In this document: positions 376 through 57,667 of the stretch, piece after piece
How positions within the stretch are numbered: position 1 is the first letter of the stretch
How the letters are laid out: every line of letters begins with the position of its first letter
Assembly: GCA_012514235.1 (NCBI GenBank)
Contig: JAAZAR010000035.1
Coordinates: forward strand, 6,997-70,996
Reading direction: 5' to 3'
DNA length: 64,000 nt
DNA from: Actinomycetota bacterium
Lineage (GTDB): Bacteria; Actinomycetota; Thermoleophilia; UBA2241
The notes under the pieces: model-generated
Databases searched by the model: none
What the model saw: the letters and a program-made list of their open reading frames with translations, nothing else
Told to the model about the DNA's origin: nothing
Program-made: the position numbers and the translations under genes

Positions 376-1446
376 TCAGGCCGGCGGAGTGAACACCTTG
401 GTGACGTAGGGCGACGTGAACAGCTGCAGCGTCGCCGCGTAGGTAGGGACGAAGGTGATGCAGTCGCCCAGCGCCGGGGGCCGGTCGAGCGCCTCGACGT
501 CCAGGATGAGGTGGTCGCTGGAGGCGCCGAGGACCTCGACGCGCGGGTCGACGGGCACGAGACCATCCGGCGGCGCGTCCTGGCGCCCGAGGGCGCAGAT
601 CGCGCGCCGCCGCGCGCCGCGGTCAGTGAACAGGGGGCGGTTGCCGAACGCGTCCTGTGCGACGGTGCCCTGCGGCAGCGACGGCTTCACGAGGCACTCG
701 ACCACCGGCGCCTCGACGATGAAGGCGTCGAGGTGCAGCCCCAGCGTGGGCTCCCGGGTGAGGGTGTCGACGCCGAGGAGGATCGTCTCGCCGATGCGCA
801 GCGAGTCGACGGCCGCCGGCATGCGACCGGAGGTGACCATGCCGATGGAGCCGGAGTTGCCGCCGGAGACGAGGAGCGGCCGGCCGAGCCGTCGTTCGCT
901 TCGCTCGGCGAGCTCGGCCAGCCGCCCCAGGTTGTCCTCGTCGGGCATGATCGCCCCATAGCACGTGAGGTTGACGCCGATGCCGGCGATGTCGATGTGG
1001 CTCATGCGGTCGACGCGGTCAAGGAACGCGGGCAGGTCGGCGGGAAGCATGCCCTCCCGTAGATCGCCGAGGTCGACCATGGCGACCACGGCATGCCGCC
1101 GCCCCGCCGCTGCGGCGGCGTTCTCGAGCGCGACCACCGTCTCGAGCTCGCTCTCCAGCGAGACGTCGGTGAGCTGCACGACCTCGCCGGCCAGCTCGGG
1201 GACCGGTGCCCGCAGGAGCCAGATGGGCGCCGTCAGGCCGGCGTCCCTGAGGCGCTCGGCGTTCTCGAGCCTCGACTCGCCGAGCGCCTTCGCCCCGCCG
1301 GCGAGCATGGTGCGGGCCACCTGCGGCGACCCGCAGGTCACTTTTGTCACGCCGACGACGGAGATGCCCGGAAGGGCGTCCACGACGGTCCGCGCGTTCG
1401 CGCGCACCTTCCCGAGATCGACGGTGACGGTGGCTCTCGCCGGCAT
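376..1446 (-). CDS. PLP-dependent amino-acid racemase, alanine-racemase fold; best fit is ornithine racemase of the ornithine oxidative degradation pathway
   Basis: ORF 376..1512; start reassigned to the internal ATG at 1446 (MPARATVTVDLGKVRANARTVVD...), which is preceded by a GGGGAGGG ribosome-binding site. The sequence resembles the alanine racemase N-terminal domain family (YhfX/Orr-like). The same strand carries ord/ortAB/oraSE further up. Confidence 0.6.
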   Translation of the reverse strand: MPARATVTVDLGKVRANARTVVDALPGISVVGVTKVTCGSPQVARTMLAGGAKALGESRLENAERLRDAGLTAPIWLLRAPVPELAGEVVQLTDVSLESELETVVALENAAAAAGRRHAVVAMVDLGDLREGMLPADLPAFLDRVDRMSHIDIAGIGVNLTCYGAIMPDEDNLGRLAELAERSERRLGRPLLVSGGNSGSIGMVTSGRMPAAVDSLRIGETILLGVDTLTREPTLGLHLDAFIVEAPVVECLVKPSLPQGTVAQDAFGNRPLFTDRGARRRAICALGRQDAPPDGLVPVDPRVEVLGASSDHLILDVEALDRPPALGDCITFVPTYAATLQLFTSPYVTKVFTPPA

Positions 1447-1555
1447 GACCCTCCCCTTGCATAAGATGTATGCACGAGAGTATCTTCCCGATGCCGTCAG
1501 GTGCAAGCCCACGACCGGCGTTGGCCGCCGTTCCGCGCGGGCGGCGGTGGCGCAA

Positions 1556-2341
1556 CTACCGCTGGCAGCTCGGACACCAGTACGTGGTGCGGTTGTCGTC
1601 CCCCTGGCCCCGAGCGGCGATCAGCACAGCGGGACCGCACCGCGGGCACGGAAGACCCGCACGGCCGTAGATCACGCGGAACTCGCTCTGGCGCCCGTGG
1701 CGCGCCGACTCCTGCATCAGCGGACGAAGGGCGCGCACGACCGCGAGCGCCTCTTCGTCGGAGACCTGGGAGAGACGGCGCCACGGGTCGATGCCGGCGA
1801 GCCAGCAGCCCTCGGACTTCCAGAAGTTGCCGATGCCGGCCACGATGTGCTGGTCCAGCAGCGCGTCCCCGAGGCCGCGCGTCTGGTCGTCCTCCCGCAG
1901 GCGAGTCAGGAACCTCGCTTCGTCGAACGGGCGCCCTGCGACGATGTCCGGTCCGAGCCGCGTGAGGCGTGGATCGCTACGGATCCGCGTCGCCGTCAGC
2001 AGGTCGAGCACGGGACCGTTGAACTGGAGCACCTCGTACTCGGCGCGGCGGAGCACGAGCCAGGCCGCCCTGGGCGAGCGCGGCCACCGTTCCCCCGCGC
2101 GGCCCACATGCCAGGACCCGCTCATCCGCAGGTGAGAGTGGATGACGAGCCCGCCGTCGAAGCGGATGAGGAGGTGCTTGCCGACGGCCTCGACCGCATC
2201 GACCCGGCGCCCGCCCAGTCGCTCCGGCCAGCGGGCGCGTCCGAAGCGCGGGTGGGGCGTCTCGATCGCCGAGGGCACGTGACCGGTGAGGGCCGCACCC
2301 ACGCGGAGCGCGGCGTGATGGAGCGTGTCGCCCTCAGGCAT
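1556..2341 (-). CDS. nei: Fpg/Nei-family DNA glycosylase (endonuclease VIII-like)
   Basis: Internal start MPEGDTLHHAA is the canonical Fpg/Nei N-terminus (catalytic Pro2/Glu3). The C-terminal zinc finger reads CPRCG...YWCPSCQ. The ATG at 2341 overlaps the lhr stop by 8 nt. Confidence 0.75.
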   Translation of the reverse strand: MPEGDTLHHAALRVGAALTGHVPSAIETPHPRFGRARWPERLGGRRVDAVEAVGKHLLIRFDGGLVIHSHLRMSGSWHVGRAGERWPRSPRAAWLVLRRAEYEVLQFNGPVLDLLTATRIRSDPRLTRLGPDIVAGRPFDEARFLTRLREDDQTRGLGDALLDQHIVAGIGNFWKSEGCWLAGIDPWRRLSQVSDEEALAVVRALRPLMQESARHGRQSEFRVIYGRAGLPCPRCGPAVLIAARGQGDDNRTTYWCPSCQR

Positions 2342-5300
2342 CGCCGGGCGCGAGGGAGAAGTCGTGCAGGCCGCGCCGGAAGCCGAGTGCGATGAGCCGC
2401 TCGGCGAGCGGGCTTGCGACGGCAGGCTCGCCGTCGATCGTGTCGACCACCAGACGGCGGAGGCGGCCGCCACGCACCTCGGCCGCGAGCGCCTCGAGGG
2501 CCGGCTGCACGTCGTCAGGCCGGCCCAGCACTCGCAGCGACCTGCCGCCGGCGTGCACCGAGAGCGCCGGGCGGCCGCCGACGGTGACGAGCTGCGCGCC
2601 CGCGCGGCGGGACGGCGGACGCGAGTCCCCGTCAGGCCAGCGCAGGCCGGCGCCGTACAGCTGAGCCGGATCGGCGGCGGCGATCACGAGCGCCTGCTCC
2701 GGAGCGTCCTCGAGCGCGCGCAGCCGCTCGACGGCTCCCGGCAGCGCGAACTGGGCGCCGCCCAGACCCTCGACGAAGTAGCCGCGGCGGGCCACGCCCA
2801 GCGTCTCCAGCGCCGAGAGCGCCGGATACAGCGCCGAGAAGCCGCCCGGGTACCCCTCGGCGCGCACCAGCTCGCGCGTCAGGACCCCGTGACGCTCGAG
2901 CAGCAGCTCGGCCCAGGCGCGGCGCCGCGCCTCGGGATCGGCGGGCACGGCGGGGAAGATCTCCGAGGCCAGCGACCACCGGCCCTGGAGCGGCGGCGTG
3001 CCACGGGAGCGCCGGCGGAACCTGGCGGACGCGGCGCGCCGACTGGGTGAAGGAGCCGCCGCCTTGGTCCCGCGCGACCGCAGCGGCGCGAAGGCGTCGT
3101 TGGTCACCTCGCCCGCCCAGGCGAGGTCCCACAGCGCCTCGCGGAGCTCCTCCGGGCTGTGACCGGAGAACTCCACGAGGAGGTCCGAGAAGAAGCACGC
3201 CCCGCGCTGGAGCCGCTCCCGCAGGCGATCGTGCAACTCACCCCGTGGCGCCTCGCCGAGGGCGGGCGGCGGACCGAGGAGCGGCGCGTCCTCGCGGAAG
3301 TAGAGCGCGACGCGGCCGGTGCGGGTGCCGAGCGGCCCCGCGCCGACCCACACGACCTCGCCGCCGGCGCACAGTTCGTCGAGCCAGTATGGCGAGTACG
3401 TGCCCAGCCGGCGCGGCAGCACGTCCTTCTCCCACACCTCCGGCGCCAGCGGCAGCCCCTGCAGCGGCGCGAGCACGTCGCGCAGCCTGTCGACCCCGGC
3501 GCCTGCCGCCGCGAACCGGTCCACACCCTGCCAGGCCGGGGCGAAGCGCGCCAGCGTCTGCTGGGCGACAGGTTCGATCTCCTTGCGCAGGACCGCCAGC
3601 GACGCCCGCCGGAGGCGGCGCAGCACGTCCGAGTCACACCATTCGCGTCGCGTCCCGAGCGGGCGAAGCTCGCCCCGCACGAGTCCACCGGCTCGTTCGA
3701 GCTCGGCGAGAGCCGGCCCGGGATCGACGCCGTACCGCGCGTGCACCTCGCCAGCCTCGAACGGACCGTGGGAACGCGCGTACCGGCGCAGCAGGCCGAG
3801 CGTCGCATCCGGCACGTCCTCCAGGAAGGCGTCGGGGAGGCCGCCGGGCGGCACGACGCCCAGGGCGTCGCGGTACAGTCCGGCATCCTCGGCGGCGATC
3901 CAGCGCTCCTCGCCGCCGAGGCGGACGCGCACCGCGCGGCGTTCGTCTTCGAGCCGTTCCAGCCAGGCGCCCGCGTCCCGCGACGGCTCGGCACGCTCCG
4001 CCGCCTCCCCCGCCGTGAGGTCGCCGACGCGACGCAGCACGTCGTGCAGCGCGTCGGCGTCCCGGGCTCTCAGGTGGTCCGAACGGTACTGGAGGTCGTC
4101 CTCCACCTGTTCCAGCGCCGCAGGGTCGATGAGGTCGCGCAGCTCCTCCTGCCCGAGCAGCTCGCGCAGCAACTCGCGGTCCAGCGAGAGGGCGACAGCG
4201 CGCCGCTCCGCGGCCGGCGTGTCGCCCTCGTACATGTAGGCGGCGACATAGTCGAACAGCAGTGAGGACGCGAACGGTGAAGCCGTCTGGGTCTCGACCT
4301 CGATCAGGGAGATCTCGCGGGTGCTCACCCTGCGCAGCACCTCCTGCAGGCCGGGGACGTCGAGTACGTCACGCAGGCACTCGCGGTACGTCTCGAGGAC
4401 CACCGGGAACTGCGGGTACCGCCTGGCGACCTCGAGCAGGGACTGCGCCTTCAGGCGCTGCTGCCAGAGCGGCGTGCGACGCCCGGGGTAGGCGCGCGGG
4501 ATGAGCAGCGAGCGCGCGGCGTTCTCGCGGAACCGCGCCCCGAACAGCGCGCTCGAGCCCAGCTCGGCGACGACGAGATCCTCGGCCTCGTCCGGCTCGA
4601 CCAGGACGAGCTCCGCGCCCGGCGGCTCGTCCGCGTCCGGCAGGTGCACGATGATGCCGTCGTCCGACCAGATGGCGTCCGCCTCGAGCCCGAAGGCGAC
4701 GCGGATGCGCGCCGAGAGGGCGAGCGCCCACGCAGCATGCACACGCCCGCCGTACGGCGACAGGACGCACAACCGCCAGTCGCCGATCTCGTCGCGGAAG
4801 CGTTCGGCGACGAGCGTCCTGTCTGACGGCACGACGCCGGTGGCCGCCTCCTGCTCGCGCAGGAACGCGAGCAGGTTGGAGGCGGCCCGCTCGTCCAGGT
4901 CGTACTCGGCCGCCAGCTGCTGTTCGTCGCGCCGCACCGCCTCGCGCGCGAACGCGCCGATGGCCTCGCCGAGCTCGCGCGGACGCCCGACGCTGTCGCC
5001 GTGCCAGAACGGCACGGCGCCCGGCACGCCGGGCGCCGGCGTGACCACCACGCGGTCGCGCGTGATCTGCTCGATGCGCCAGCTGGTGGCCCCCAGCAGG
5101 AACGTCTGTCCCGCCCGCGCCTCGTACACCATCTCCTCGTCGAGCTCGCCGACCCGGCGGCCGTCCGGCAGGTTGACGGTGAAGAGGCCGCGGTCCGGGA
5201 TGGTGCCCGCGTTCGCGACCGCGAGGGATCGTGCACCCTGCCGCGCCCGCACCGTCCCGGCGAGCCGGTCCCACACGATGCGCGGCCGCAGCTCGGCGAA

Positions 5301-6752
5301 CTCCGCCGACGGATAGCGGCCGTCCAGCATGTCGAGCACGTTGTCGAGCTGCCGGCGCTCCAGCTCGGCGTACGTCCAGGTGCGCCGCACGAGGGCGTGG
5401 AGCTCGTCGACCGCCACGCCCTCCTCCCCGGCGCTCGCCGCGACGGCGACCACCTGTTGCGCCAGCACGTCGAGCGGGTTGCGCGGTACGACCGTGGTCT
5501 CGATGAGCCCCTCGCGCATGCGCCGCGCCACGACGGCGCACTCCAGCAGGTCCGCACGGAACTTGGGGAAGATCCGTCCGCGCGAGACCTCGCCCACGCC
5601 GTGCCCGGCGCGGCCGATCCGCTGCAGCCCTCGCGTGACCGACTTCGGAGACTCGACCTGGATGACGAGGTCGACGGCTCCCATGTCGATGCCGAGCTCG
5701 AGCGACGACGTCGCGACCAGGCACGGCAGCCGCCCGGACTTGAGCTGGTCCTCGATCACGACGCGCTCCTCGCGCGCGAGCGACCCGTGATGGGCACGGG
5801 CGATCTCGCGCGCGCTCTCCCCCGCCGCCTCCGACTCCTGGGCGGCGAGGTCGTTGAGCCGCAGGGCGATGCGCTCCGCCGCCCGGCGGTTGTTGACGAA
5901 CACGAGCGTGGAGCGGTGCTCGCGCACGAGGCGCAGCAGCTCCGGGTAGATGGCCGGCCAGATGCTGCGCCGCGTGGCCTCCCCGCCGCCCGGCAGATGG
6001 TCGAGCTCGACCGTGACGTCCGGCTCGACCATCGACTCGACCGGGACGTGGATGCGCAGGTCGAGCGGCTTGCGCACCCCTGCGTCGACGACGGTGCAGG
6101 TCCGGGACGGGCCGACCAGGTACCGAGCGACCTCGTCGAGCGGACGCTGCGTGGCGGAGAGCCCGATGCGCTGCACGTCGCGGCCCGCCTGCTCGACCAG
6201 CCGCTCGAGGGTCACCGCCAGGTGCGCCCCGCGCTTGGTCTGCGCCACGGCGTGGATCTCGTCGACGATGACCCACTGCGTGGCGGTGAAGAGTCTGCGC
6301 GCCTGCGAGGTGAGCATGAGATACAGCGACTCGGGGGTCGTGATGAGGATGTCGGGCGGCGTGCGCAGCATGGCCGCTCTCTCCTTCTGCGGCGTGTCGC
6401 CGGTCCGCACCGCGACGTGCACGTCGGCTCCGATGCCGCGCAGCGGCGCACGAAGGTTGCGTTCCACGTCGTAGCCGAGCGCCTTGAGCGGCGAGACGTA
6501 GACGAGGCGGAGCGTGCGCTCCCTCGGGTCCGCCGGTGGAGGGTCGGCGACGAACCGGTCGAGCGCCCACAGGAAGGCGGCGAGGGTCTTGCCGGAGCCT
6601 GTGGGCGCCGAGACGAGTGCGTGCTCGCCCCGGGAGATGGCGGGCCACGCCTGCACCTGCGCCGGCGTGGGCTCGGCGAACGCCCGCTCGAACCAGTCGC
6701 GCACGCGGGGCGTGAACGGCGCGAGCGCGGGATGGATGTGCTGTGCTGTCAT
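2334..6752 (-). CDS. lhr: Lhr-type ATP-dependent DNA helicase (large helicase-related protein)
   Basis: The 1484-aa ORF has a DEAD/DEAH helicase core (SAPTGSGKTLAAF, DEIH) and a long C-terminal extension; its size and architecture match Lhr. The mycobacterial lhr-nei2 operon arrangement is reproduced here. Confidence 0.8.
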   Translation of the reverse strand: MTAQHIHPALAPFTPRVRDWFERAFAEPTPAQVQAWPAISRGEHALVSAPTGSGKTLAAFLWALDRFVADPPPADPRERTLRLVYVSPLKALGYDVERNLRAPLRGIGADVHVAVRTGDTPQKERAAMLRTPPDILITTPESLYLMLTSQARRLFTATQWVIVDEIHAVAQTKRGAHLAVTLERLVEQAGRDVQRIGLSATQRPLDEVARYLVGPSRTCTVVDAGVRKPLDLRIHVPVESMVEPDVTVELDHLPGGGEATRRSIWPAIYPELLRLVREHRSTLVFVNNRRAAERIALRLNDLAAQESEAAGESAREIARAHHGSLAREERVVIEDQLKSGRLPCLVATSSLELGIDMGAVDLVIQVESPKSVTRGLQRIGRAGHGVGEVSRGRIFPKFRADLLECAVVARRMREGLIETTVVPRNPLDVLAQQVVAVAASAGEEGVAVDELHALVRRTWTYAELERRQLDNVLDMLDGRYPSAEFAELRPRIVWDRLAGTVRARQGARSLAVANAGTIPDRGLFTVNLPDGRRVGELDEEMVYEARAGQTFLLGATSWRIEQITRDRVVVTPAPGVPGAVPFWHGDSVGRPRELGEAIGAFAREAVRRDEQQLAAEYDLDERAASNLLAFLREQEAATGVVPSDRTLVAERFRDEIGDWRLCVLSPYGGRVHAAWALALSARIRVAFGLEADAIWSDDGIIVHLPDADEPPGAELVLVEPDEAEDLVVAELGSSALFGARFRENAARSLLIPRAYPGRRTPLWQQRLKAQSLLEVARRYPQFPVVLETYRECLRDVLDVPGLQEVLRRVSTREISLIEVETQTASPFASSLLFDYVAAYMYEGDTPAAERRAVALSLDRELLRELLGQEELRDLIDPAALEQVEDDLQYRSDHLRARDADALHDVLRRVGDLTAGEAAERAEPSRDAGAWLERLEDERRAVRVRLGGEERWIAAEDAGLYRDALGVVPPGGLPDAFLEDVPDATLGLLRRYARSHGPFEAGEVHARYGVDPGPALAELERAGGLVRGELRPLGTRREWCDSDVLRRLRRASLAVLRKEIEPVAQQTLARFAPAWQGVDRFAAAGAGVDRLRDVLAPLQGLPLAPEVWEKDVLPRRLGTYSPYWLDELCAGGEVVWVGAGPLGTRTGRVALYFREDAPLLGPPPALGEAPRGELHDRLRERLQRGACFFSDLLVEFSGHSPEELREALWDLAWAGEVTNDAFAPLRSRGTKAAAPSPSRRAASARFRRRSRGTPPLQGRWSLASEIFPAVPADPEARRRAWAELLLERHGVLTRELVRAEGYPGGFSALYPALSALETLGVARRGYFVEGLGGAQFALPGAVERLRALEDAPEQALVIAAADPAQLYGAGLRWPDGDSRPPSRRAGAQLVTVGGRPALSVHAGGRSLRVLGRPDDVQPALEALAAEVRGGRLRRLVVDTIDGEPAVASPLAERLIALGFRRGLHDFSLAPGDA

Positions 6753-6831
6753 CTGCTGTGTGATGCCCTCGAGGCAGCCTAGCATCACACGGCGCCGGGA
6801 CGGATGCGGCGCAGGCCGAACCGGACCGAGT

Positions 6832-8181
6832 TCAGACGCCTATGCTGGCGCGCGCGATGGCGGTCACGGCCTCCGGCGCGAAGTGCTGCAGGAGGGCGCC
6901 GCAACAGGCGAAGACGTAGTCGCGATCGAGGGCGATGCGCGCGTCCGGCGGCGGCAGCAGGCGTTCTCCGCCGCCGCCCCGCGCGCGCACGTCGGCCAGC
7001 AGGGCCTCACCGCCGGGCAGGCGCGTGAGGGCGCCGCCGGTGCCGATCACCAGCCGGCAGGCGGTCAGGTCGCGCCCGCGGGCGACCGTCTGCCGGCCCG
7101 TCGGCGTGTAGAGGTGCGCCAGCTGTCCGGCGTGCCGCTGCACGCCGGTCGTGGCAGCGAAGTGCGTCAGCGTCAGCGCCGCCGCGACCTCTTCCTGCGT
7201 CCGCGGGAGCGCCGGAGGGAGATGCACGGGACGGTCCTGGGCGGCGAGCATCTCCACGACGTGGGGCGCGCTCACGTACGTCCCGAGGTCGCCCTCCACG
7301 GTCCGCTTGCTGTGCGGCTGCGGCTCGATCATGAGGGCCGCCATCTCGGGGCTGCCGTCGGTGATGGAATGCACGTCGGTCGTCGCCCCCCCGACGTCGA
7401 CGACGACGAGGTCGCCGAGGTCCTCCGCCAGCCGCTCGGCGGCGATGAGCACGGCGCCCGGCGTCGGGAGGATCCTGCCGCTCACCAGCTCTCCGATGCG
7501 CTCCATCCCCGGGGCGTGCGTGATGTGCTCCTCGAACGCGTCGTGGATGACGTGGCGGGCGGGGACGATGTCGAGCTCGTCGACCGCCGGATACACGTTG
7601 CTGGTGAGCTTGACGCGGAAGCCGGCGGCCTCGAGCAGCTCCTGCGCGTCGCTGCACACCACGCTGTTGCCGGCATAGACCACGATCGGCCGGTCCTCGA
7701 GCTTCGCGAGCTCCGCGGCGTTGGCGAGCACGGTGTCGCAGTCGCCGCCCTCCACCCCCCCGGCGAGCAGGATGAGGTTGGGATGGACCGCCTCGATCTC
7801 GCGCAGGTCGTGTGCTCGCAGGCGGCCGGCGGTCTGGTACTTGACGACCGCGCCGGCCCCCAGCGCGGCCTCGCGCGCCGCCATGGCCGTCATGCGCTGG
7901 GTGAGGCCGTGGACGGTCATCCGCAGGCCGCCCGCGGCGGAGCTGGTCGCCAGCGTGAGCTCCGGCTCCACCGAAGCGCCAAGCGCCGCCTCCAGCTCCG
8001 CCCGGGCGGCGCTCACCCCGATGGTGACGTCGCCGTCGGCGATCGACGTGGCGGCGACGCCCTGCCCGACGAGGGAGGGAGTCGCCGCCGGATACTCGCG
8101 CAGCCCGGCGAACGCCGAGACCACGGTGGTCGTCGAGCCGATCTCGGCGACGAGCGCATCGACTGGCCGCGGCGCGTCCAT
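6832..8181 (-). CDS. MutL/GlmL-like B12-mutase reactivating/chaperone component (OraL-like)
   Basis: 449-aa protein with the glutamate-mutase MutL-family look (GSTTTVVSAF... ATTDVHS). It sits immediately downstream of oraE, abutting it with a 1-nt gap. Confidence 0.6.
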   Translation of the reverse strand: MDAPRPVDALVAEIGSTTTVVSAFAGLREYPAATPSLVGQGVAATSIADGDVTIGVSAARAELEAALGASVEPELTLATSSAAGGLRMTVHGLTQRMTAMAAREAALGAGAVVKYQTAGRLRAHDLREIEAVHPNLILLAGGVEGGDCDTVLANAAELAKLEDRPIVVYAGNSVVCSDAQELLEAAGFRVKLTSNVYPAVDELDIVPARHVIHDAFEEHITHAPGMERIGELVSGRILPTPGAVLIAAERLAEDLGDLVVVDVGGATTDVHSITDGSPEMAALMIEPQPHSKRTVEGDLGTYVSAPHVVEMLAAQDRPVHLPPALPRTQEEVAAALTLTHFAATTGVQRHAGQLAHLYTPTGRQTVARGRDLTACRLVIGTGGALTRLPGGEALLADVRARGGGGERLLPPPDARIALDRDYVFACCGALLQHFAPEAVTAIARASIGV

Positions 8182-8182
8182 C

Positions 8183-10471
8183 TCACCTCCCGCGCTCGCG
8201 CAGCGTCTCGACGACGAACGAGGCGACGTTGATGCCCTTAGTGCCGCGTCCGAAGCCGGCGTCCATGCCCCAGCTCCGGGCGAGCTCGTCGGTGACCTGG
8301 GTGCCGCCGGAGATGAGGATCAGCTTGTCCCGCACCCCCTTCTCCACCGCGAGGTCGGCGAGCTTCTCCATGTTGTTCCGGTGCATGTCGCCGTGCGTGA
8401 TGATCGTGCTGATGAGGACGATCTGCGCCGCGTGCTCGATGGCCGCGTCCAGCACCTTCTCGACGGGGACGCTGGTGCCGAGGTACTCGCACGAGAAGCC
8501 CCACTTCTCGAGACCGCCGTGCTTGATGTCGATGATCTCGCGCATGCCGACCGAGTGTTCGTCCTCGCCGACGGTGGCGGCCACGCACTTGAGGCCTCGC
8601 TCGGCGACGAACGCCCGGATCTCGTCGTCCTTCATCACCACCGGCTCCGGCGGGATCACCAGGCGGGCCGGGTCGACGACGACGTCCAGCCGGCCCTTCA
8701 TCTCGATGAGCGTGCCCTCGGCCGGGTGCATGACCTGCCTGTTGATGACTTCGCAGTCCTGCAGGTTCATGGCCTTGCCGAACTCGAGCGCCGCGAACTC
8801 CGCGACGCGCGGCGCCGCCGGCAGGAACAGCGTGACCACGACCCAGCCGTCGGCCGCCCACTCGACCTCCGGCTTGATGAGCTGCCGCTCGCGGAGCTCC
8901 TTCGTCTGCGCGAGCCGGGCGTTGACGTTGTCCTCCGCGTCGAGCTCGTCGATGAACGGGACCTTGCCGGCGTCGCACAACGTGCACCCGCCGATCAGGT
9001 CGCAGGGCTTCTTCAGCCCGGCCGGAGTGCCCTCGCCGCCCTCGGCGTCGTAGCCCTCCGGCAGGTGGTTCTCGCCGAAGTGGTGGCACACCGGCGCCAG
9101 GTAGTCGGCGGCGCGAGGCACTATCGTGCCCGCCGCCACGCCGCCGTCGCTCTTGCGGGCGATGCCGTCGTCGTGGGTCTCGGGGTAGATGCCGGAGTCG
9201 ACGAAGTACGCCTCCTCGACGGCGGCGAAGTAGCCGCCGTCCTCCAGCATGGCCTCCAGGAAGAGGACGGTGCGTTCCTTGATCTCGCGCACCTTGGCCT
9301 TCAGCTCCGGCGCCTCGCGGTCGATCTTGACCATCTCGCGCAGGCCGTCCATGCCGATCAGGCTCTGCTTGGCCGTGTTCACCGCCGCGACGTTGTTGTA
9401 GTGCCAGGGCACGTTGCGGCCTTCGTCGGGCGTGATCGTACTCTGGATGTCGGCGCTCGTGAGACGGCTGATCATGAGGTTCATCACGTGGCTGACCGTG
9501 GCGTCGCGCCCGTCGGCCTCCATGTAGCGCGTGTTCTCCTGGGCGCGCATCTTGTAGTCGCCGAACAGGTCGCGCAGGGCGACCGCGTAGGGCAGGTCCA
9601 TGCGCATGCAGGGGGCCGGAGCGGCGTCCGGCGGCACGGTGCTCAGGCAGATGTCCTCGGCCGGCATGCCGACAGAGACGGAGTAGCGGCAGTTGATGGC
9701 GTGCTGCACGAGCAGCTCGGGCATCACGTTCCACGCCTCGACGGCCGTGGCGTTGGCGTTGTGGGCGCCGTCGATCTGCGCCATGCGCACGCTGGCCATG
9801 ACGTGCTTGGCCACGGCCGCGTCCACGAAGCTGCGGTACATGTTGATGTTGCGGTAGAGGACGTTGTACTGGGGATCCTGATGGGCCCCGTTGACGCCCT
9901 CCTCGGCGAACATGACGGCCATCTCGGGGCCGGCGACGCCGCTGACGTAGCTGTGGAAGTTGATCGGCCTGCCCACCTCGTCCTCGATGAGGTCGAGCGC
10001 CTTGCGTGTGGCGCGGACCTGCTTGCGCGTGACGGCGATGCCGCCGACGCCTTCGGGTGTGCCCTCGAGCAGGCCGTCCATGTGGCTCTGGCCGGCGGTG
10101 CGGATGACCATCATGTGGTCCGCACCGTGCCAGGCCGCCATGCGCATGCGGCGGATGTCGTCCTCGAACCGCCCGGAGGCGATCTCGGTGGTCACCACGC
10201 AGTCCGGCTGCGGGTCGATGTCGCCGAAGTAGTGGGCGGCCGGCAGCGGGATGCTGCGTTCGAGGCCCTTCGACGTCTCCTTGTAGGTGAACTTGTGCAG
10301 CCGCTGGTCCGGCACGGGCTCGCGCCAGTGCCAGCCCTTGCGCCGCGGGCGGTAGTGCTCGAGGTCCCGCAACAGGGCCTCTACGTCGAGCTTCTCGTCC
10401 GGGTCGAGCGGCGGCAGGCCCACGCCGGCCGCCGCGCCGCCCTCGGGGCGCGTGTCGTCAGGCTTCATCGC
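8183..10471 (-). CDS. oraE: D-ornithine 4,5-aminomutase large (E) subunit, adenosylcobalamin- and PLP-dependent
   Basis: About 763 aa from the internal ATG at 10471. The Arg-rich N-terminal 56 codons of the ORF look like a GC artefact. The C-terminal Rossmann B12 domain carries the DxHxxG motif (DEHSVG). It is paired with a 120-aa S subunit and with ord/ortAB. Confidence 0.75.
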   Translation of the reverse strand, partial: AMKPDDTRPEGGAAAGVGLPPLDPDEKLDVEALLRDLEHYRPRRKGWHWREPVPDQRLHKFTYKETSKGLERSIPLPAAHYFGDIDPQPDCVVTTEIASGRFEDDIRRMRMAAWHGADHMMVIRTAGQSHMDGLLEGTPEGVGGIAVTRKQVRATRKALDLIEDEVGRPINFHSYVSGVAGPEMAVMFAEEGVNGAHQDPQYNVLYRNINMYRSFVDAAVAKHVMASVRMAQIDGAHNANATAVEAWNVMPELLVQHAINCRYSVSVGMPAEDICLSTVPPDAAPAPCMRMDLPYAVALRDLFGDYKMRAQENTRYMEADGRDATVSHVMNLMISRLTSADIQSTITPDEGRNVPWHYNNVAAVNTAKQSLIGMDGLREMVKIDREAPELKAKVREIKERTVLFLEAMLEDGGYFAAVEEAYFVDSGIYPETHDDGIARKSDGGVAAGTIVPRAADYLAPVCHHFGENHLPEGYDAEGGEGTPAGLKKPCDLIGGCTLCDAGKVPFIDELDAEDNVNARLAQTKELRERQLIKPEVEWAADGWVVVTLFLPAAPRVAEFAALEFGKAMNLQDCEVINRQVMHPAEGTLIEMKGRLDVVVDPARLVIPPEPVVMKDDEIRAFVAERGLKCVAATVGEDEHSVGMREIIDIKHGGLEKWGFSCEYLGTSVPVEKVLDAAIEHAAQIVLISTIITHGDMHRNNMEKLADLAVEKGVRDKLILISGGTQVTDELARSWGMDAGFGRGTKGINVASFVVETLRERGR

Positions 10472-10827
10472 GCCCCTCCCCACTTCTGCTCGACCGTGTC
10501 CCAGCCCTCGCCGACGGCGAGCCGGCGTGCGGCCTCGGGCGCGGCGCAGTCCCACGTGGTCGCGCAGTGCAGCACCACGTGCCCGGCGCCGTGCCCCAGC
10601 AGGCCGCGCTTCTCGCACTCGCCGACCACCGCCAGACACGTCGGCGAGTCGACGCCCATGCGCATGAGCACCGAGCGCTCGATGCTCGGACTCGTGTGCG
10701 TACGGGCGAGCTCGACCATCGGGTCCACGACCCGCTGCGCGAGCTCCCAGAACCGCGCCTCGAGCTCCTCGTCGCTGAGCTCGGCGAGGTGCCCGCGGAT
10801 CTTCAGGTACGTGTCCTCGCGGGCCAT
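10465..10827 (-). CDS. oraS: D-ornithine 4,5-aminomutase small (S) subunit
   Basis: 120 aa, the size of OraS. Its stop overlaps the oraE start (translational coupling). Position within the or-cluster also supports the call. Confidence 0.7.
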   Translation of the reverse strand: MAREDTYLKIRGHLAELSDEELEARFWELAQRVVDPMVELARTHTSPSIERSVLMRMGVDSPTCLAVVGECEKRGLLGHGAGHVVLHCATTWDCAAPEAARRLAVGEGWDTVEQKWGGAR

Positions 10828-10828
10828 C

Positions 10829-12241
10829 TCAGCCCTCCCTCAGCTCGGCGATCGTCGCCTCCACCGTGTCCGGGTCGGACTTGGTGTCGGCGGCCAGGAA
10901 CTCGATGTCGTCCGACGTCGGCGCATACCCCTCGGGGGCATTCCTGAGCGCGTTGCGGATGTAGCTCTTACGCATGCGCGCCAGGTCGAAGTCCGTGGCG
11001 CGGATCTGCTCGATCCGCTCCGGGATGACGATGACCTCGCCGGGCACGTTCTCCGCGGGATCGCCGGCGCGCACCTCGACGCCCATCTCCCTGGCGAAGT
11101 TGAGCTGGCTCCAGTGGTGCTTGCCGGCGCCCGTGTACTCCGTCTCCTGCACGACCACGGTCGCGTCGCGCGGCAGGTCACGGGCGAGGCTCACGGCCGC
11201 GGTCATGGCGGTGTTGCCGGCCGGGCCGCGCTCGAGGCCTTCCAGCTTGGCCATGGCCTCCGTGATGTAGAACACCTCGCCCTGGGTCACCGTGAGGTAG
11301 CGGTCGATGTACCGGAGCGGCCGGGCCGCGTTGCGCGGCACGTCGGCGCGGTCCGGCCACGTGGCGAACGGCACGCCGAACCCGGTGTGGCCGGTGGTGA
11401 AGCTCTTGCGGTTGAAGTCGACGTCGCTGGCCATGTGGAGCCCGCTGAGGTCGACGGACGCGCTGACGATCTGCGTGTCCGTGGCGCCGGCGCACTCCAG
11501 GCCCCGCGCCGTGCCGGTCGTGTTGCCGCCGCCGGCGTGGGTGACCACCACGTGCGTCGGCGGCGCGCCCGTGAGGTGCTCCATCTCACGGGCGATCTCC
11601 ACACCGAGCGTCTCGATGCCGCTCACGCCGAAGCTGCTGTAGAGCGATGCGGCGAAGTACCCGGTCACGTCCAGCAGCTCTACCATGTGGAAGAAGAGTT
11701 CCGGGCCCACGGTGAGCTGCACGACCTCGGCGCCGTAGCTCTCGCAGATACGGCCCTTCTCGACGATCTCGGGCTGGCCGACGTGCCGGCTGTCGAAGGT
11801 CTCCTGGACGATGATGCACTTGAGGCCGTTGCGCGCCGCCTGGCTGGCGACGGCGGCGCCGTAGTTGCCCGACGTCGCCGCGATGACGCCCTCGTAGCCC
11901 TTCTCCTTCGCGACGAAGATGCTGACGCTGGCGCGCCGGTCCTTGAAGGCGCCGGCGAGGTTGGCCGCCTCGTCCTTCACGAAGATGCGCGCACCCTTGC
12001 CGGGCTCGCTGATGCTGCGCACGAGGTCCGTCAGGTTCTTCAGCTCGAGAAGCGGCGTGGAGCCAACGCCGGCCCGCGTCTGGATGGAGACGATCTCGTC
12101 CAGCGAGTAGCCGTGCGCGCCCATCATGCGCTCGTAGTCGAAGGCGATGGGGCTCAGCTCGAACTCGCTGTAGTCCATGCCGAGCGCCTTGCGCATGATC
12201 TCGCCGCGGCGCGCCATGATGGCGTCGAACTTGCTGGCCAT
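10829..12241 (-). CDS. ortB: 2-amino-4-ketopentanoate thiolase beta subunit (PLP-dependent, tryptophan-synthase-beta fold)
   Basis: 470 aa with a fold-type II PLP enzyme signature (KDEAANLAGAFKDR with the PLP-binding Lys; SGNYG). It is adjacent to the small alpha subunit and to ord. Confidence 0.75.
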   Translation of the reverse strand: MASKFDAIMARRGEIMRKALGMDYSEFELSPIAFDYERMMGAHGYSLDEIVSIQTRAGVGSTPLLELKNLTDLVRSISEPGKGARIFVKDEAANLAGAFKDRRASVSIFVAKEKGYEGVIAATSGNYGAAVASQAARNGLKCIIVQETFDSRHVGQPEIVEKGRICESYGAEVVQLTVGPELFFHMVELLDVTGYFAASLYSSFGVSGIETLGVEIAREMEHLTGAPPTHVVVTHAGGGNTTGTARGLECAGATDTQIVSASVDLSGLHMASDVDFNRKSFTTGHTGFGVPFATWPDRADVPRNAARPLRYIDRYLTVTQGEVFYITEAMAKLEGLERGPAGNTAMTAAVSLARDLPRDATVVVQETEYTGAGKHHWSQLNFAREMGVEVRAGDPAENVPGEVIVIPERIEQIRATDFDLARMRKSYIRNALRNAPEGYAPTSDDIEFLAADTKSDPDTVEATIAELREG

Positions 12242-12624
12242 CAGCGCTCACCGCCTTCGGCCGGCGCGCCCGGTGAGGCCGGTGTTCCGGGAGCCAGACC
12301 GGCCTCCTGCCGCCTGAAGGCCGCGAGCCGGGCACGCAGGTCGCGGCCCACATGCGTCAACTCCGGGATCGGCGAGCCGTAGGTGATGTAGTAGCCGGGG
12401 TTCACCGCCGAGAGCGTGCCCACGACCCTGCGGCCGGTGATCGTCTCCACGGCGAGCTCTTCGCCGACGGCAGCCTCGCCCTCGGCGAACCCCTTGACCC
12501 ACATCATGAGCGGCTTCTCCGCCGTCTCCGGCGGCAGGTTCGCGCTGCGGTCGGCGGGGTCGAGCAGCTTGACCTCGATCTCGACCCAGTCGCCCTCACG
12601 GGCGGCGCGGATGTCGTCCGTCAT
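12241..12624 (-). CDS. ortA: 2-amino-4-ketopentanoate thiolase alpha subunit
   Basis: Small (about 100-127 aa) protein directly 5' of ortB, with a start/stop overlap at 12241. This matches the OrtA size and position. Confidence 0.6.
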   Translation of the reverse strand: MTDDIRAAREGDWVEIEVKLLDPADRSANLPPETAEKPLMMWVKGFAEGEAAVGEELAVETITGRRVVGTLSAVNPGYYITYGSPIPELTHVGRDLRARLAAFRRQEAGLAPGTPASPGAPAEGGER

Positions 12625-12634
12625 GCAGGCCTCC

Positions 12635-13645
12635 TCACACCGTCGGCGTCCAGAAGCGCGGCAGCGGCATGTCCACCACGGTGAGCATGCCGGCCGGCGC
12701 GTCCTTCACGAGAGGGATGTAGTTGCCCGTGCTGGCGTAGGTCCCCTTGCCGCCCGGGATCTCCGGCTTGTTGCCCATGGTCACGTTGGGGTCGCCGTGG
12801 ATCTCGATGTAGTCGCCGGTCTCGACGCCGGCGAGCTCCGGGTGGATCTGCTGCGGGTGGATGAGCTCGATCTTGAGCTCGTCGCCCACGTAGCCGCGGC
12901 CGATGTGACGGCAGCCGGCCACGTCACCGGGCGCCACGTGCACGTGCGGCGTGGAGCGCTCGACCTCGGTGACGATCGGCTCGCGGGTCTCCTCGACCCG
13001 GTCGATCCTCCACCCCAGCGCCCGGGCCATGAGCCCGATGCTCTCGGGGAAGCCGATGTGGCCGACGATACTGCCCTCGGCGACGCCCTTCTCGAACTCC
13101 TCTACGGTGGTGCCCACCCCCTGGCCGTTCAGCACGGTCGGACCGAAGGGCGAGAGGTCGTTCACGCGCGTCGCGACGATCCTGTCGACGCGCAGGCACA
13201 CGGAGCTCCACATGACGACGAGCGCGTCGAGCATGAATCCGGGGTTGATGCCGGCACCGAGGCAGGTGACGTCGTTCTCCTTCGCCACCGTGTCGAACAG
13301 CTCCGCGCGCTCGGGATCGCTCGCCCACGGGTAGCTCATCTTCTCCGCGATGCAGATGACGTCGCAGCCGGCCCGAAGCGCGGGCAGCACCTGCGGCTCC
13401 ACCTCGTGGAGGTTGCTCTGCGTGCAGATGCAGACCACGTCGGGCTTGCCGGCGAGTACGGCCTCGACATCGCTGGTCATCTTGACGTCGCACGGACGGC
13501 CGAGCAGCTCGCCGACGGACATGCCCTCCCTGTCCTGGTACGTCTCTATGACCCCGACGAGGTCGATGTCCTTCGGGCGGTCCAGGATGTAGCCCAGGAG
13601 GCCCTGGCCCATCATGCCGGTGCCCCACGCAGCGACCTTGATCAT
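12635..13645 (-). CDS. ord: 2,4-diaminopentanoate dehydrogenase (dihydrodipicolinate-reductase-like NAD(P) enzyme)
   Basis: 336 aa with an N-terminal Rossmann motif AAWGTGMMGQ. It belongs to the DapB-like family and is the first gene of the ord-ortA-ortB-oraS-oraE-oraL string. Confidence 0.7.
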   Translation of the reverse strand: MIKVAAWGTGMMGQGLLGYILDRPKDIDLVGVIETYQDREGMSVGELLGRPCDVKMTSDVEAVLAGKPDVVCICTQSNLHEVEPQVLPALRAGCDVICIAEKMSYPWASDPERAELFDTVAKENDVTCLGAGINPGFMLDALVVMWSSVCLRVDRIVATRVNDLSPFGPTVLNGQGVGTTVEEFEKGVAEGSIVGHIGFPESIGLMARALGWRIDRVEETREPIVTEVERSTPHVHVAPGDVAGCRHIGRGYVGDELKIELIHPQQIHPELAGVETGDYIEIHGDPNVTMGNKPEIPGGKGTYASTGNYIPLVKDAPAGMLTVVDMPLPRFWTPTV

Positions 13646-13696
13646 GTCACGCTCCTGTTCACGAGTGCGCCGCTGTCGACGCTGGCTCTCATTCCT

Positions 13697-13713
13697 GCAT
13701 ACGGATTATGCAG
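13697..13713. promoter_or_regulatory. Perfect inverted repeat TGCATA-N5-TATGCA in the promoter region upstream of ord; candidate operator
   Basis: TGCATACGGATTATGCA read directly at 13697-13713. It lies 52 nt upstream of the ord start codon, in the 349-nt intergenic gap. Confidence 0.3.
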
Positions 13714-13994: not shown

Positions 13995-14861
13995 TCACGC
14001 CAGGGTGAACGCCACCACGCCGGCGATCATGCAGAGGACGCCGGCGAGCCGCGTCGCCGTGACGCGCTCGCGCAGCACCCAGGCGCCGTAGAACACCCCC
14101 ACCATCATGGAGACCTCGCGGAGCGGGGCGACGTACGCCAGCGGGGCGAGCCTCAGCGCGAAGAGCACGAGCGTGAACGCGACCGGCGAGAGGATGCCCA
14201 CGGTGACGATCTGCCTCCGGCTCTGGCGCCACTCCGCTCCGAGGCACGCCGGCTCGCGGAGGGCGAACGGCGCCATCACGACCGCGGTGAGCACGAGCGA
14301 GAGCAGGAAGAAGACGAGCGGGCTGAGGCCGAGACTGGTGACGGCCCAGGCGTCGATCACGGTGTACGTGGCGATCCAGAGCCCCGTCAGCGTACCCCAG
14401 CCGACCCCCGCCGACCGCTTCCGCGATCCAGGAGCCGAGACAAGACCCGAGACGAGCACGATACCGACGAGGACGGCGCCGATGCCGACCGATCCGGCGA
14501 CGCCCGGCCGCTCTCCGAAGAGGAGGACCGCGGCCGCCACCGCGAACAGCGGCCCGGTGCCGCGCGCCACCGGATAGACGACCGAGAGGTCGCCGTGCCG
14601 GTAGCCGAGCTGGAGCAGCAGGAAGTACACGCCGTGGACCACTCCGCTGGCCACGACCGCGATCCACGCGGAGAGGCCCATCGACGGGGGGTCCACGGCC
14701 CACGAGACCAGGCCGAAGGGCAACGCCAGCCCCATGCTGACGACGCTCATGAGCCAGACGAAGGCGACGCTGTCGCCGTCGGACGCCCGTTTGGCACTCA
14801 GGTTCCAGGTGGCGTGCAGGACGGCTCCCGTCACGACCAGCGCCAGAGCGAGCGGACTCAC
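13995..14861 (-). CDS. EamA/DMT-family transporter (10 TM)
   Basis: 288-aa highly hydrophobic protein with duplicated EamA-like halves. It is immediately upstream of the or-cluster promoter and could import or export substrate. Confidence 0.65.
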   Translation of the reverse strand: MSPLALALVVTGAVLHATWNLSAKRASDGDSVAFVWLMSVVSMGLALPFGLVSWAVDPPSMGLSAWIAVVASGVVHGVYFLLLQLGYRHGDLSVVYPVARGTGPLFAVAAAVLLFGERPGVAGSVGIGAVLVGIVLVSGLVSAPGSRKRSAGVGWGTLTGLWIATYTVIDAWAVTSLGLSPLVFFLLSLVLTAVVMAPFALREPACLGAEWRQSRRQIVTVGILSPVAFTLVLFALRLAPLAYVAPLREVSMMVGVFYGAWVLRERVTATRLAGVLCMIAGVVAFTLA

Positions 14862-15255
14862 GGACGGCCGCCGAGGTCACGAAGGGTCACGGCCGTCTGT
14901 CCGGGGACCGCGCCAGAAGAGAGTCCGTACATGGCCGTAGTCTACGCCGCCGCGGCGGCCGAAACCCGGCGACGAGAGCTGCTCGTCCGATCCGACCCGC
15001 GGCCTAAGCGTCATCCCAGCCGGACCGTGACCGGCGGCGTCGCTCGCCCGTCTCCGAAAGACTCCTCGTTCGCGTCGATGGCGGCGAGCAGGCGGTCACG
15101 GTCGGTGACGGGACGCCGCCCGACTCCGCGGATCGCCGCCGCCGGAAGAGCTCGTGCGTGCTGGAGGGCCGGGCTGGGCCGCGGCGGCGGCACGCCGGCG
15201 ACAGGTCACGGATGCGAGCCGACCGTACTCCGAGGAGGCCCGGCCGCATCTCGCC

Positions 15256-15993
15256 TCAGCGAGCCGCCTCCACGATCGCCGCCGCGACGGCGACGTCGTC
15301 CGCGGCAGTCGTCGCCGGGCCACCGGGCAGGAAGACGTCGGCGACCCGGACGGCGAGCACGGCGAGCTGAGCCGGGTCGTCCGGGACCGCGCCGCCCGGA
15401 AAGACGGCCGCATGGGCGGGGATCCATCGTGCGGCAGCGGCCACGGCGGCGCGCCGGTCGCTGTCGCCGGGCGCGATGCACGAGAACCTCCAGCGCCGCG
15501 CCCGCTCCGTGATCTCCGGCCGGTCGGCTTCGATGCCGGCGGCGGCGAACACGCGGCAGTCGTAGGTGCGACAGGTGAGGGGCCGGCGGTCGTAGATGGT
15601 GCACAGACCGCTCTCGTCCAGGAGGGGACAGCGGCCACGGTCGTCGAACGGCAGCACGACGTGCCCGGCCGGCCGATCCGGCGCGGCGAACAGCAACTCG
15701 GCGGGCACCGCGGCCAGCGTCTCGACCTCGTCCGGGCCGATGTGCACGAAGTGCGACGTGGAGCAACAGGCACAGCAGTCCCCGCAGGGAACGTCCGCGT
15801 CGGCCTCGTGGAGCAGGGCGGCGCGCAGACGTTCGATCCACTCGCCGAACTCGCCGGCCGGCAGGTCGCAGGCTCCGCTGTCGGTCTCGCAGCTCACACG
15901 AGACACCGTGCCGCCCGGCGCTCCTGGCGTCAAGCCCATCTTCATGCGGTAGTAGGCCAGACTGACGTGGCGCTCCGGCCGCGCGGGCTGCAA
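15256..15993 (-). CDS. YkgJ-family Cys-cluster (zinc/iron-chelating) protein
   Basis: Contains CGDCCACC, a variant of the CxxCxxCC motif, plus GLCTIYDRRPLTCRTYDC, which matches the PF03692-type pattern. Confidence 0.55.
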   Translation of the reverse strand: MQPARPERHVSLAYYRMKMGLTPGAPGGTVSRVSCETDSGACDLPAGEFGEWIERLRAALLHEADADVPCGDCCACCSTSHFVHIGPDEVETLAAVPAELLFAAPDRPAGHVVLPFDDRGRCPLLDESGLCTIYDRRPLTCRTYDCRVFAAAGIEADRPEITERARRWRFSCIAPGDSDRRAAVAAAARWIPAHAAVFPGGAVPDDPAQLAVLAVRVADVFLPGGPATTAADDVAVAAAIVEAAR

Positions 15994-15999
15994 CGCCCG

Positions 16000-22726: not shown

Positions 22727-22782
22727 GGCCCTCGCGAGCGTATCACGCCGCCCGGACGAGTCCCGGACGCCCCCGCGCCGGG

Positions 22783-23352
22783 CTACGTCAACTCGCGGAT
22801 GAGCTCCGCGTGCGCGGGGTAGGCGGCCAGCAAGGCGTCGCGTTCGCCCATCTCGAAGTCCTCGAAGGCGAACCCAGGCGTGACCACGCAGCTCACGAGG
22901 GCCCAGGCGCGGGCGGCCGGCAGGTGCGGGCCGCCGGCGAGCCGGGCGCCCTGCCAGCTGCCGGCCGGCACGAGCGACTGAGCCAGCCAGTCGCGCCCGC
23001 CCTCCGGCGACCCCGCCGACACCTCGCCGGCCTGCTCGCGATCGCCGGCTTGCCCGGCCGCCAACTCCGCGAGGTCGCCGAGCACGCGCCGCTGGAGCTC
23101 GCCGTCGGGCGCGATCGTCACCAGCTCCAGCGGCAGCCCTCCCTGGTACACCCACAGCTCGTCGCTGGAGAGGCGGTGCAGCCTGCTCGCCGAATCCTCC
23201 GTGACCAGGAAGAGGATGGCCGTGCACGCGGGCCGCGCGCCGCGCGGCGTCTGCATCGTCTCCGCCGCGCGGTACGTCTCCAGGTAGTAGCCGCCCTCAG
23301 GGTGGGGCTGAAGCCCCAGCGTGTCGGCCAGGTGTGCAGCGGTCGGTCGCAT
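22783..23352 (-). CDS. Cupin-fold protein (DUF985-like)
   Basis: HPEGGYYLETYR is the characteristic N-terminal motif of the DUF985 cupin family. Confidence 0.5.
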   Translation of the reverse strand: MRPTAAHLADTLGLQPHPEGGYYLETYRAAETMQTPRGARPACTAILFLVTEDSASRLHRLSSDELWVYQGGLPLELVTIAPDGELQRRVLGDLAELAAGQAGDREQAGEVSAGSPEGGRDWLAQSLVPAGSWQGARLAGGPHLPAARAWALVSCVVTPGFAFEDFEMGERDALLAAYPAHAELIRELT

Positions 23353-23427
23353 GTCCGCAGCATACCCGAGGGGCGGGCGGTCGTGCCCCTCCCCGCCCGC
23401 ACACTCGTCGCACCCTGCGCTGGTAGG

Positions 23428-24975: not shown

Positions 24976-24980
24976 TCTGT

Positions 24981-29375: not shown

Positions 29376-29412
29376 CTCGTCCTCCTCGTCGCGCCGGGAA
29401 AGGCCGGCGTCG

Positions 29413-31107: not shown

Positions 31108-31108
31108 C

Positions 31109-56078: not shown

Positions 56079-56094
56079 ACCCGCTCCCCGGGGG

Positions 56095-57651: not shown

Positions 57652-57667
57652 CCCGATGGCGAAGCGC

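Follow-up and report, generated by a model that had tools for sequence, protein, structure and literature searches.

A stretch of 64,000 nucleotides (the window) from an uncultured Thermoleophilia (Actinomycetota) bacterium of anaerobic habitats is predicted from its sequence to encode, between positions 376 and 13645, a complete and intact B12-dependent pathway for the oxidative degradation of ornithine. Nine genes lie in this interval, all on the minus strand and without internal stops (Table 1). Our full reading, to which we assign a probability of about 80%, is that the pathway is intact, that its genes are organised as two co-regulated units sharing a palindrome, and that the gap between these units is occupied by an autonomous operon of two DNA-repair genes, lhr and nei2.

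Ord, OrtA, OrtB, and OraE all score above the equivalog cut-offs of their NCBIfam hidden Markov models (HMMs), and OraS passes the Pfam model OAM_alpha, in agreement with an earlier note on this DNA that had assigned the genes to the ornithine oxidative (Stickland-type) pathway. The HMM E-values for the gene set range from 1e-29 to 0, so the match is far beyond chance. The earlier note had also described ord, ortA, ortB, oraS, oraE, and or-4 as contiguous and translationally coupled, which is confirmed by junctions that are either overlaps or gaps of at most 10 nt: ord and ortA are separated by 10 nt, the ortA stop and the ortB start share 1 nt, the ortB-oraS and oraE-or-4 spacers are 1 nt each, and the oraS stop overlaps the oraE start as ATGA. 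The racemase gene, orr, was found where that note had placed it, on the same strand beyond lhr and nei.

The cluster of Clostridium (Acetoanaerobium) sticklandii and C. difficile encodes these seven proteins too, with an identical gene order (ord, ortA, ortB, oraS, oraE, or-4, orr). It is in clostridia that the pathway was first found and has received most study (PMC13397332, PMC3091704). Compared to the clostridial cluster, the window has a high-GC actinobacterium as its host, its orr lies 5.4 kb from or-4 and has its own palindrome, and its second unit goes on into genes for a GTPase distantly related to cyclic 2,3-diphosphoglycerate synthetase (cDPGS) and for ornithine carbamoyltransferase. 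In addition, its Orr and Or-4 proteins score under the respective NCBIfam cut-offs.

For the large B12 protein, the earlier note had named lysine 5,6-aminomutase as an alternative. The OraE model (NF040743) gave 1311 bits, compared to 135 and 131 bits for the alpha and beta models of lysine 5,6-aminomutase, respectively. Against chains of known structure, the score was 1074 bits for OraE of C. sticklandii (3KOW) and 98 bits for lysine aminomutase. These results rule out lysine 5,6-aminomutase and favour OraE. D-lysine 5,6-aminomutase (KamDE) has the fold and cofactors of OraE, with a TIM barrel, a B12-binding domain, and pyridoxal 5′-phosphate (PLP), whereas the window protein shows the fused OraE architecture and has a separate small subunit, OraS, encoded directly upstream. 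In the alignment with 3KOW, the B12-binding motif DEHSVG (DxHxxG, base-off/His-on) and the motif with the PLP lysine, IDIKHGG, are identical. For Or-4, the best match is NF040744, and its position after oraE is conserved among relatives.

As judged from the protein families and from the pathway as published (PMC13397332, PMC3091704), Orr would racemise L-ornithine to D-ornithine, and OraSE, using adenosylcobalamin and PLP, would then shift the 5-amino group of D-ornithine to give 2,4-diaminopentanoate. The GlmL-like Or-4 probably supports OraSE as a presumed mutase reactivase or chaperone. Ord would oxidise 2,4-diaminopentanoate to 2-amino-4-oxopentanoate, yielding NAD(P)H, and OrtAB would split this product with CoA into acetyl-CoA and alanine.

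Table 1. Genes and putative regulatory elements of the ornithine cluster and of the gap within it (positions in the window).
Feature	Position	Strand	Evidence
ord, 2,4-diaminopentanoate dehydrogenase, 336 aa	12635-13645	minus	NF040740 441 bits (cut-off 400); Pfam DAP_DH_C 288 bits; PDB 6g1m/6g1h 352 bits
ortA, 2-amino-4-oxopentanoate thiolase alpha subunit, 127 aa	12241-12624	minus	NF040739 102 bits (cut-off 70); Pfam OrtA match
ortB, PLP-dependent thiolase beta subunit, 470 aa	10829-12241	minus	NF040741 793 bits (cut-off 550)
oraS, D-ornithine 4,5-aminomutase small subunit, 120 aa	10465-10827	minus	Pfam OAM_alpha 142.7 bits; PDB 3kow_E 108 bits
oraE, D-ornithine 4,5-aminomutase large subunit, 761 aa	8183-10468	minus	NF040743 1311 bits (cut-off 800)
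or-4, GlmL/MutL-like accessory protein, 449 aa	6832-8181	minus	NF040744 524 bits (cut-off 600); Pfam MutL 447 bits
lhr, large helicase-related protein, 1472 aa	2334-6752	minus	Lhr Pfam domains; NF007284 1356 bits
nei, nei2-type endonuclease VIII, 261 aa	1556-2341	minus	Pfam Fapy_DNA_glyco and H2TH; Nei2 143 bits
orr, ornithine racemase-type PLP enzyme, 356 aa	376-1446	minus	NF040742 361 bits (cut-off 480)
Predicted P-loop GTPase, N-terminal 110 of 440 aa (cut by window end)	1-330	minus	PDB 9sxb (cDPGS) E=1.5e-7
Palindrome TGCATA-N5-TATGCA, putative operator 1	13696-13712		50 nt upstream of ord ATG
Palindrome TGCATA-N5-TATGCA, putative operator 2	1458-1474		11 nt upstream of orr ATG
lhr upstream block, inverted repeat GTGTGATGC-N15-GCATCACAC	6758-6804	minus	kept in all 10 lhr-bearing relatives

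The 64-kb window contains exactly two copies of the perfect palindrome TGCATA-N5-TATGCA, where 0.11 matches would be expected with up to 2 mismatches allowed. We followed it through related loci obtained by scanning one genome per species for OraE, which gave 588 stretches with OraE relatives; 80 of these loci were kept and are referred to by L numbers. They contain 27 exact matches to the palindrome, 26 of them just upstream of ord or orr, while the remaining copy (L058) is close to the end of its contig, with orr out of view. The palindrome is also found upstream of orr in loci where orr abuts or-4 (L020, L046, L066), and the pattern continues across the Thermoleophilia-type clade in copies with 1 or 2 mismatches; none of the Coriobacteriia-type and Bacillota loci among the 80 has the palindrome. 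The sharing of this element by ord and orr, and its conservation in relatives, suggests two co-regulated transcription units with an autonomous lhr-nei2 operon between them. One would comprise ord-ortA-ortB-oraS-oraE-or4 and the other orr, the GTPase gene, and the ornithine carbamoyltransferase gene, and the palindrome before each would serve as the operator of one regulator encoded elsewhere.

A number of observations weigh against this reading. Neither Orr (361 bits; cut-off 480) nor Or-4 (524 bits; cut-off 600) reaches the threshold of its own family model, and the 64-kb window contains no cobalamin genes or cobalamin riboswitch. Arginine deiminase and carbamate kinase genes were likewise not seen in the window or in the vicinity of the Thermoleophilia clusters. 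No regulator gene was seen near the cluster in the loci inspected, either upstream of ord or downstream of the carbamoyltransferase gene; the genes present are PMT, MFS, and HD-domain genes downstream of it, and EamA, CxxCxxCC, and AddAB-like genes upstream of ord. A scan of the unit boundaries, of a kind that is weak for high-GC actinobacteria, gave no intrinsic terminators or sigma-70 consensus promoters. With no terminator-like site at the boundaries, read-through from or-4 across lhr-nei2 into orr is possible. The palindrome, moreover, could act as an RNA hairpin and not as a DNA operator.

The earlier note regarded the splitting of the cluster by lhr and nei as unusual. The comparison with relatives does not bear this out. 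The order ord-ortA-ortB-oraS-oraE-or4-orr is conserved across Actinomycetota and Bacillota, and in the actinobacterial loci inserts of more than 500 bp are found at the ortB-oraS (21/59), oraE-or4 (19/53), and or4-orr (23/42) junctions, and never at ortA-ortB or oraS-oraE. The Bacillota loci (L074-L080) are compact, with a single gap of 706 bp at ortB-oraS. The or4-orr gap holds lhr, mostly together with nei, in nine relatives (L001, L002, L006, L008, L018, L021, L024, L027, L034); in a tenth lhr-bearing relative (L013), lhr follows or-4 and orr is out of view. Conservation of the lhr-nei insertion, which the earlier note had proposed to check by synteny, thus extends to at least nine related species. 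Other inserts at this junction include an L,D-transpeptidase (YkuD), papain-like (C1) peptidases, clostripain-like (C11) peptidases with radical SAM, and a carbamoyltransferase with ATP-grasp. Loci with lhr turn up all over the Thermoleophilia-type clade, its basal branch included; the arrangement therefore probably goes back a long way and has been lost or replaced repeatedly. Instead of disrupting the cluster, lhr-nei2 sits between or4 and orr at a natural boundary of operons, a juxtaposition conserved within the lineage.

C1 and C11 peptidase genes lie in the or4-orr gap at L005:17312-19156, L009:16610-17704, and L014:13722-16289, and the peptidases may release amino acids for the pathway. 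In two Coriobacteriia-type loci (L023:6297-9535 and L025), the ortB-oraS gap holds a gene for a NikR-like regulator and a CbiM/Q/O-type cobalt/nickel transporter, which could plausibly provide cobalt for the B12 enzyme; other relatives have different inserts at ortB-oraS.

The Lhr protein of the window matches the Pfam models DEAD, Helicase_C, WH_Lhr, DEAD_assoc, and WH2-4_Lhr, which together cover the helicase core and the C-terminal winged-helix domain, and its ATG start is conserved in relatives. The start of nei overlaps the lhr stop by 8 nt, and the Nei protein has an N-terminal MPEG, an H2TH domain, and a C-terminal four-Cys zinc finger; its best NCBIfam match is Nei2 (NF040775), with a score far below the cut-off of 400. 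In mycobacteria, lhr and nei2 are a co-operonic, DNA-damage-induced pair (PMC9841417, PMC11323726). Like the pair in the window, the mycobacterial operon combines an Lhr core and winged-helix C-terminal domain with a directly downstream nei2 whose product carries MPEG, H2TH, and a zinc finger (PMC9841417, PMC11323726, PMC8053096). The window pair differs in lying between the halves of a catabolic cluster; damage induction is known from the mycobacterial pair.

About 55 bp upstream of lhr are conserved in all 10 lhr-bearing relatives, whatever gene precedes. This block contains an inverted repeat that is possibly a damage-response operator, although we take it not to be a recognised LexA or PafBC motif. 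We found no flanking repeats or mobile-element traces around lhr-nei, only chance GC-rich matches, and insertion of the pair by a mobile element was rejected. On the simplest reading, the pair would be an ordinary actinobacterial DNA-damage-response operon with its own upstream region, placed in the gap between the two units and leaving the pathway undisturbed.

Alternatively, lhr-nei2 could be functionally part of the cluster, in one long operon ord-or4-lhr-nei2-orr through which repair and ornithine catabolism are co-expressed. Such an operon would account for genes that all lie on one strand, with short spacers (79 nt from or-4 to lhr and 109 nt from nei to orr) and no terminator-like site at either boundary, in an arrangement kept in at least nine related species across the Thermoleophilia-type clade. 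However, the block upstream of lhr persists where other genes part lhr from or-4 (L002, L008, L013), orr is preceded by a palindrome and a ribosome-binding site of its own, and several close relatives either do not have lhr-nei2 at this place or have unrelated genes there (L003, L004, L005, L014). The mycobacterial pair, in addition, is an independent damage-induced operon (PMC9841417). We therefore consider a single operon unlikely and favour two units with an autonomous repair operon between them.

The two palindromes might also not be operators. They could be AT-rich palindromes arisen by chance, or stem-loops acting post-transcriptionally in the RNA, where one might, for instance, mask the ribosome-binding site of orr. 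In favour of this, the copy before orr abuts the Shine-Dalgarno sequence and ends 11 nt short of the ATG, the RNA could fold into a stem of 6 bp with a loop of 5 nt, and no regulator gene was found nearby. Chance is excluded by the two copies found against 0.11 expected and by the fact that, in relatives, every exact match except one is located at the same two gene starts. The stem letters are invariant in the exact copies, and thus do not show the covariation that an RNA structure would, which counts against a stem-loop. Moreover, the palindrome shares its half-site, TGCAT, with the Streptomyces ARG box (PMC5839063, Table 1), which is typical of a protein-binding site. A role other than that of an operator is, in our judgement, improbable.

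The ARG box bound by ArgR in Streptomyces has the half-site TGCAT in the arrangement TGCAT-N4-ATGC, usually as tandem 20-mers, as in the argG box CTTTGCATGGTCATGCGTAA (PMC5839063, Table 1). The window palindrome has the same half-site (TGCAT/ATGCA), and both elements are located at arginine or ornithine genes. In contrast to the ARG box, the half-sites in the window are separated by N7, 3 bp wider than N4, and form one single 17-bp palindrome rather than tandem 20-mers. The spacing and the single site rule out a canonical ARG box.

We then considered the racemase. The Orr model (NF040742) is its best and only strong family match, over the full length of the protein, which also matches Pfam Ala_racemase_N and is a fold-III PLP enzyme. 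Ornithine racemases (OrnR) carry the PLP lysine together with a conserved catalytic Cys that replaces the Tyr of alanine racemase, Cys164 in the Salmonella enzyme (PMC13397332). In the window protein, Lys35 aligns with the PLP lysine of alanine racemase in PDB alignments spanning the N-terminal part, and both Lys35 and Cys162-Tyr163 are invariant in 42 of 42 Orr orthologues in an alignment reaching from Thermoleophilia to Bacillota. The earlier note had allowed for the protein grouping with other racemase families; with Orr as the sole strong family and these hallmark residues present, it does not.

The scores of Orr and Or-4 below their cut-offs are shared by their orthologues. Orr proteins encoded next to or-4 give 358-360 bits with NF040742 in Actinomycetota and 404-408 bits in three Bacillota loci, so that the cluster-embedded copies of L076, L078, L079, L020, and L047 (358-408 bits) all fall under the cut-off, and only the Caldanaerobacter protein (525 bits) passes among those tested. 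Or-4 orthologues score 495-511 bits in actinobacteria and 678-711 bits in Bacillota. The NCBIfam cut-offs thus exclude all actinobacterial orthologues tested of either protein, and that for Orr also excludes 3 of 4 Bacillota cluster copies. Since cluster-embedded Orr proteins of both phyla mostly fail, the NF040742 cut-off is narrower than the orthologue group. Cut-offs that are too strict would lead automated annotation to give generic names to Orr and Or-4 and to under-call the pathway in Actinomycetota.

On this evidence we weighed the possibility that the gene at 376-1446 does not encode the ornithine racemase of the pathway and is instead grouped with the GTPase and carbamoyltransferase genes in a module of their own, its product being, for instance, a racemase of lysine or of broad specificity. 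Its score below the Orr cut-off, its distance of 5.4 kb from or-4, and the constant position of the GTPase gene next after orr in Thermoleophilia-type loci would fit such a module. Against it stand the full-length match to Orr alone, the invariant catalytic residues, the similarly low scores of cluster-embedded Orr in both phyla, the palindrome common to orr and ord, and the orthologues that directly abut or-4, which are 60-88% identical in many Actinomycetota and 40-52% identical in Bacillota. A separate module is very unlikely, and we retain the protein as the predicted racemase of the pathway.

Only the first part of the gene following orr lies within the window. It is complete (440 aa) on contig L162, which is 99.95% identical to the window, and a gene for ornithine carbamoyltransferase comes after it there. 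The same order is found in relatives; full-length copies are located at L162:9712-11034, L012:16311-17639, and L020:14804-16129. Its product had been labelled DUF1611 (DgcN-like) in the earlier note, an identity that had to be abandoned: neither the window fragment nor two full-length orthologues match Pfam DUF1611, even at E<=10. Both DUF1611/DgcN and the window GTPase are roughly two-domain proteins with a P-loop-like domain. The fragment shows weak similarity to P-loop proteins of the cobW/HypB/UreG type and a local match of about 110 residues to cDPGS (PDB 9sxb; E=1.5e-7, 34 bits). The family has a Walker A motif and NKID, is 61-65% identical between Thermoleophilia and Bacillota, and has no Pfam family of its own. 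By sequence, the gene encodes a P-loop GTPase distantly related to cDPGS. Thermoleophilia proteins of this family are named 'predicted GTPase' by JGI and 'cyclic 2,3-diphosphoglycerate synthase' by NCBI. The cDPGS of Methanothermus fervidus is the sole solved relative (PMC10690619; PDB 9sxb), and both proteins are about 440-460 aa long with the P-loop in the C-terminal part. The similarity, however, is very distant, the window family carries the guanine-specificity motif NKID, and it is widespread in bacteria beside arginine-linked genes, whereas the solute cDPG has been reported only from hyperthermophilic methanogens (PMC10690619). The NCBI name is probably an over-annotation.

The GTPase family is widespread. 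A scan of metagenomes confirmed at least 585 loci, of which 80, ranging in GC content from 30% to 71%, were kept and their neighbours counted within 2.5 kb on the same strand. Carbamate kinase was found in 17 of these loci, ornithine carbamoyltransferase in 13, and arginyl-tRNA synthetase in 13; orr was a neighbour once and oraE never. In ornithine clusters of Bacillota, the GTPase gene occurs with arcC, and in 2 of 3 loci checked with the carbamoyltransferase gene as well. A role as a MeaB-like chaperone of the aminomutase is unlikely given the near absence of oraE and orr among its neighbours, and replacement of carbamate kinase is unlikely given the normal arcC beside it in Bacillota. The neighbourhoods are consistent with a link of the family to arginine metabolism.

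The presence of the carbamoyltransferase gene in the orr unit suggests that ornithine would be supplied from citrulline or arginine. Taken further, the unit of orr, GTPase, and carbamoyltransferase genes might, together with the palindrome common to both units, represent a new regulon leading from arginine or citrulline through ornithine to alanine, under a regulator with ARG box-like half-sites at a non-canonical spacing and with the GTPase as a new player in arginine and carbamoyl-phosphate metabolism. We regard this proposal as tentative and, on balance, doubtful.

Turning to the distribution of the cluster, the best OraE matches are 94% identical and come from uncultured Thermoleophilia metagenome-assembled genomes (MAGs). 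Among the 80 kept loci, 73 are from Actinomycetota (OraE 77-94% identical), and Bacillota come next (66-70%). At least 73 Actinomycetota species are thus predicted to carry the same cluster. Two contigs are nearly identical to the window, one from an anaerobic-digester metagenome (L162, 99.95%) and one from an NCBI MAG (GCA_030058515.1, 99.6%), and both encode the exact Orr protein. Anaerobic-digester samples of PRJEB20855 carry this genome. A neighbour-joining tree of OraE and OrtB places the Actinomycetota in one clade, apart from Bacillota. The window has 71% GC, and GC at third codon positions (GC3) of the nine genes is 0.89-0.97, in line with the remainder of the window. This GC3 and the monophyletic actinobacterial clade argue for long residence of the cluster, as the earlier note had proposed from codon usage. 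A recent horizontal transfer of the cluster out of clostridia or other Bacillota, which the discovery and study of the pathway in clostridia might suggest (PMC13397332, PMC3091704), is hardly credible given a GC3 equal to that of the window's housekeeping genes, an OraE closer to those of 73 Actinomycetota species than to any Bacillota copy, and the single actinobacterial clade.

The statement in the earlier note that the pathway is best known from clostridia is fair in itself. Nevertheless, a catabolic ornithine operon is already known from 'anaerobic Firmicutes, actinobacteria and thermotogae' (PMC13397332), so that finding it in a high-GC genome is no novelty. Our literature search on the pathway in Thermoleophilia or Coriobacteriia returned nothing specific.

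The surroundings of the cluster contain further genes. Directly upstream of ord is an EamA-family transporter gene (13995-14876, minus), found in only one relative (L018), followed by a CxxCxxCC-domain gene (15256-15999, minus) that is also conserved before ord in relatives, frequently as two copies. Just beyond are AddA/AdnB-like (UvrD helicase and PD-(D/E)XK nuclease) and AddB/AdnA-like genes (16000-23296, minus), of which the former is likewise kept before ord by many Thermoleophilia relatives. With these AddAB-like genes on one side and lhr-nei on the other, DNA-repair genes therefore flank the ornithine genes on both sides. Farther away are an RNase P RNA gene of class A (251 bits; 24979-25377, minus) and a tRNA gene (58955-59038, minus). 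A housekeeping block on the minus strand (26060-32374 and 36438-39491) encodes 6-phosphogluconolactonase, glucose-6-phosphate dehydrogenase, 6-phosphogluconate dehydrogenase, a phosphoglucose isomerase-like protein, and transaldolase, and then the transhydrogenase genes pntB and pntA. Genes for an MBOAT acyltransferase, an unknown protein, a GDSL-like protein, and an AMP-ligase lie at 52610-57765 (minus), and another MBOAT gene at 22636-24903 (plus); the MBOAT, GDSL-like, and AMP-ligase group may be a surface-polymer acylation system.

Together, these results represent a real but ordinary finding, another case of a known pathway. The shared putative operator and the arginine-linked GTPase are small leads, and knowledge of the pathway itself is unchanged. 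The B12-dependent ornithine pathway, usually deemed a clostridial Stickland trait, appears to be long-standing and widespread in uncultured anaerobic Actinomycetota, in both Thermoleophilia-type and Coriobacteriia-type lineages from soils, peat, sediments, and digesters, which bears on the question of which organisms consume arginine and ornithine in those habitats.

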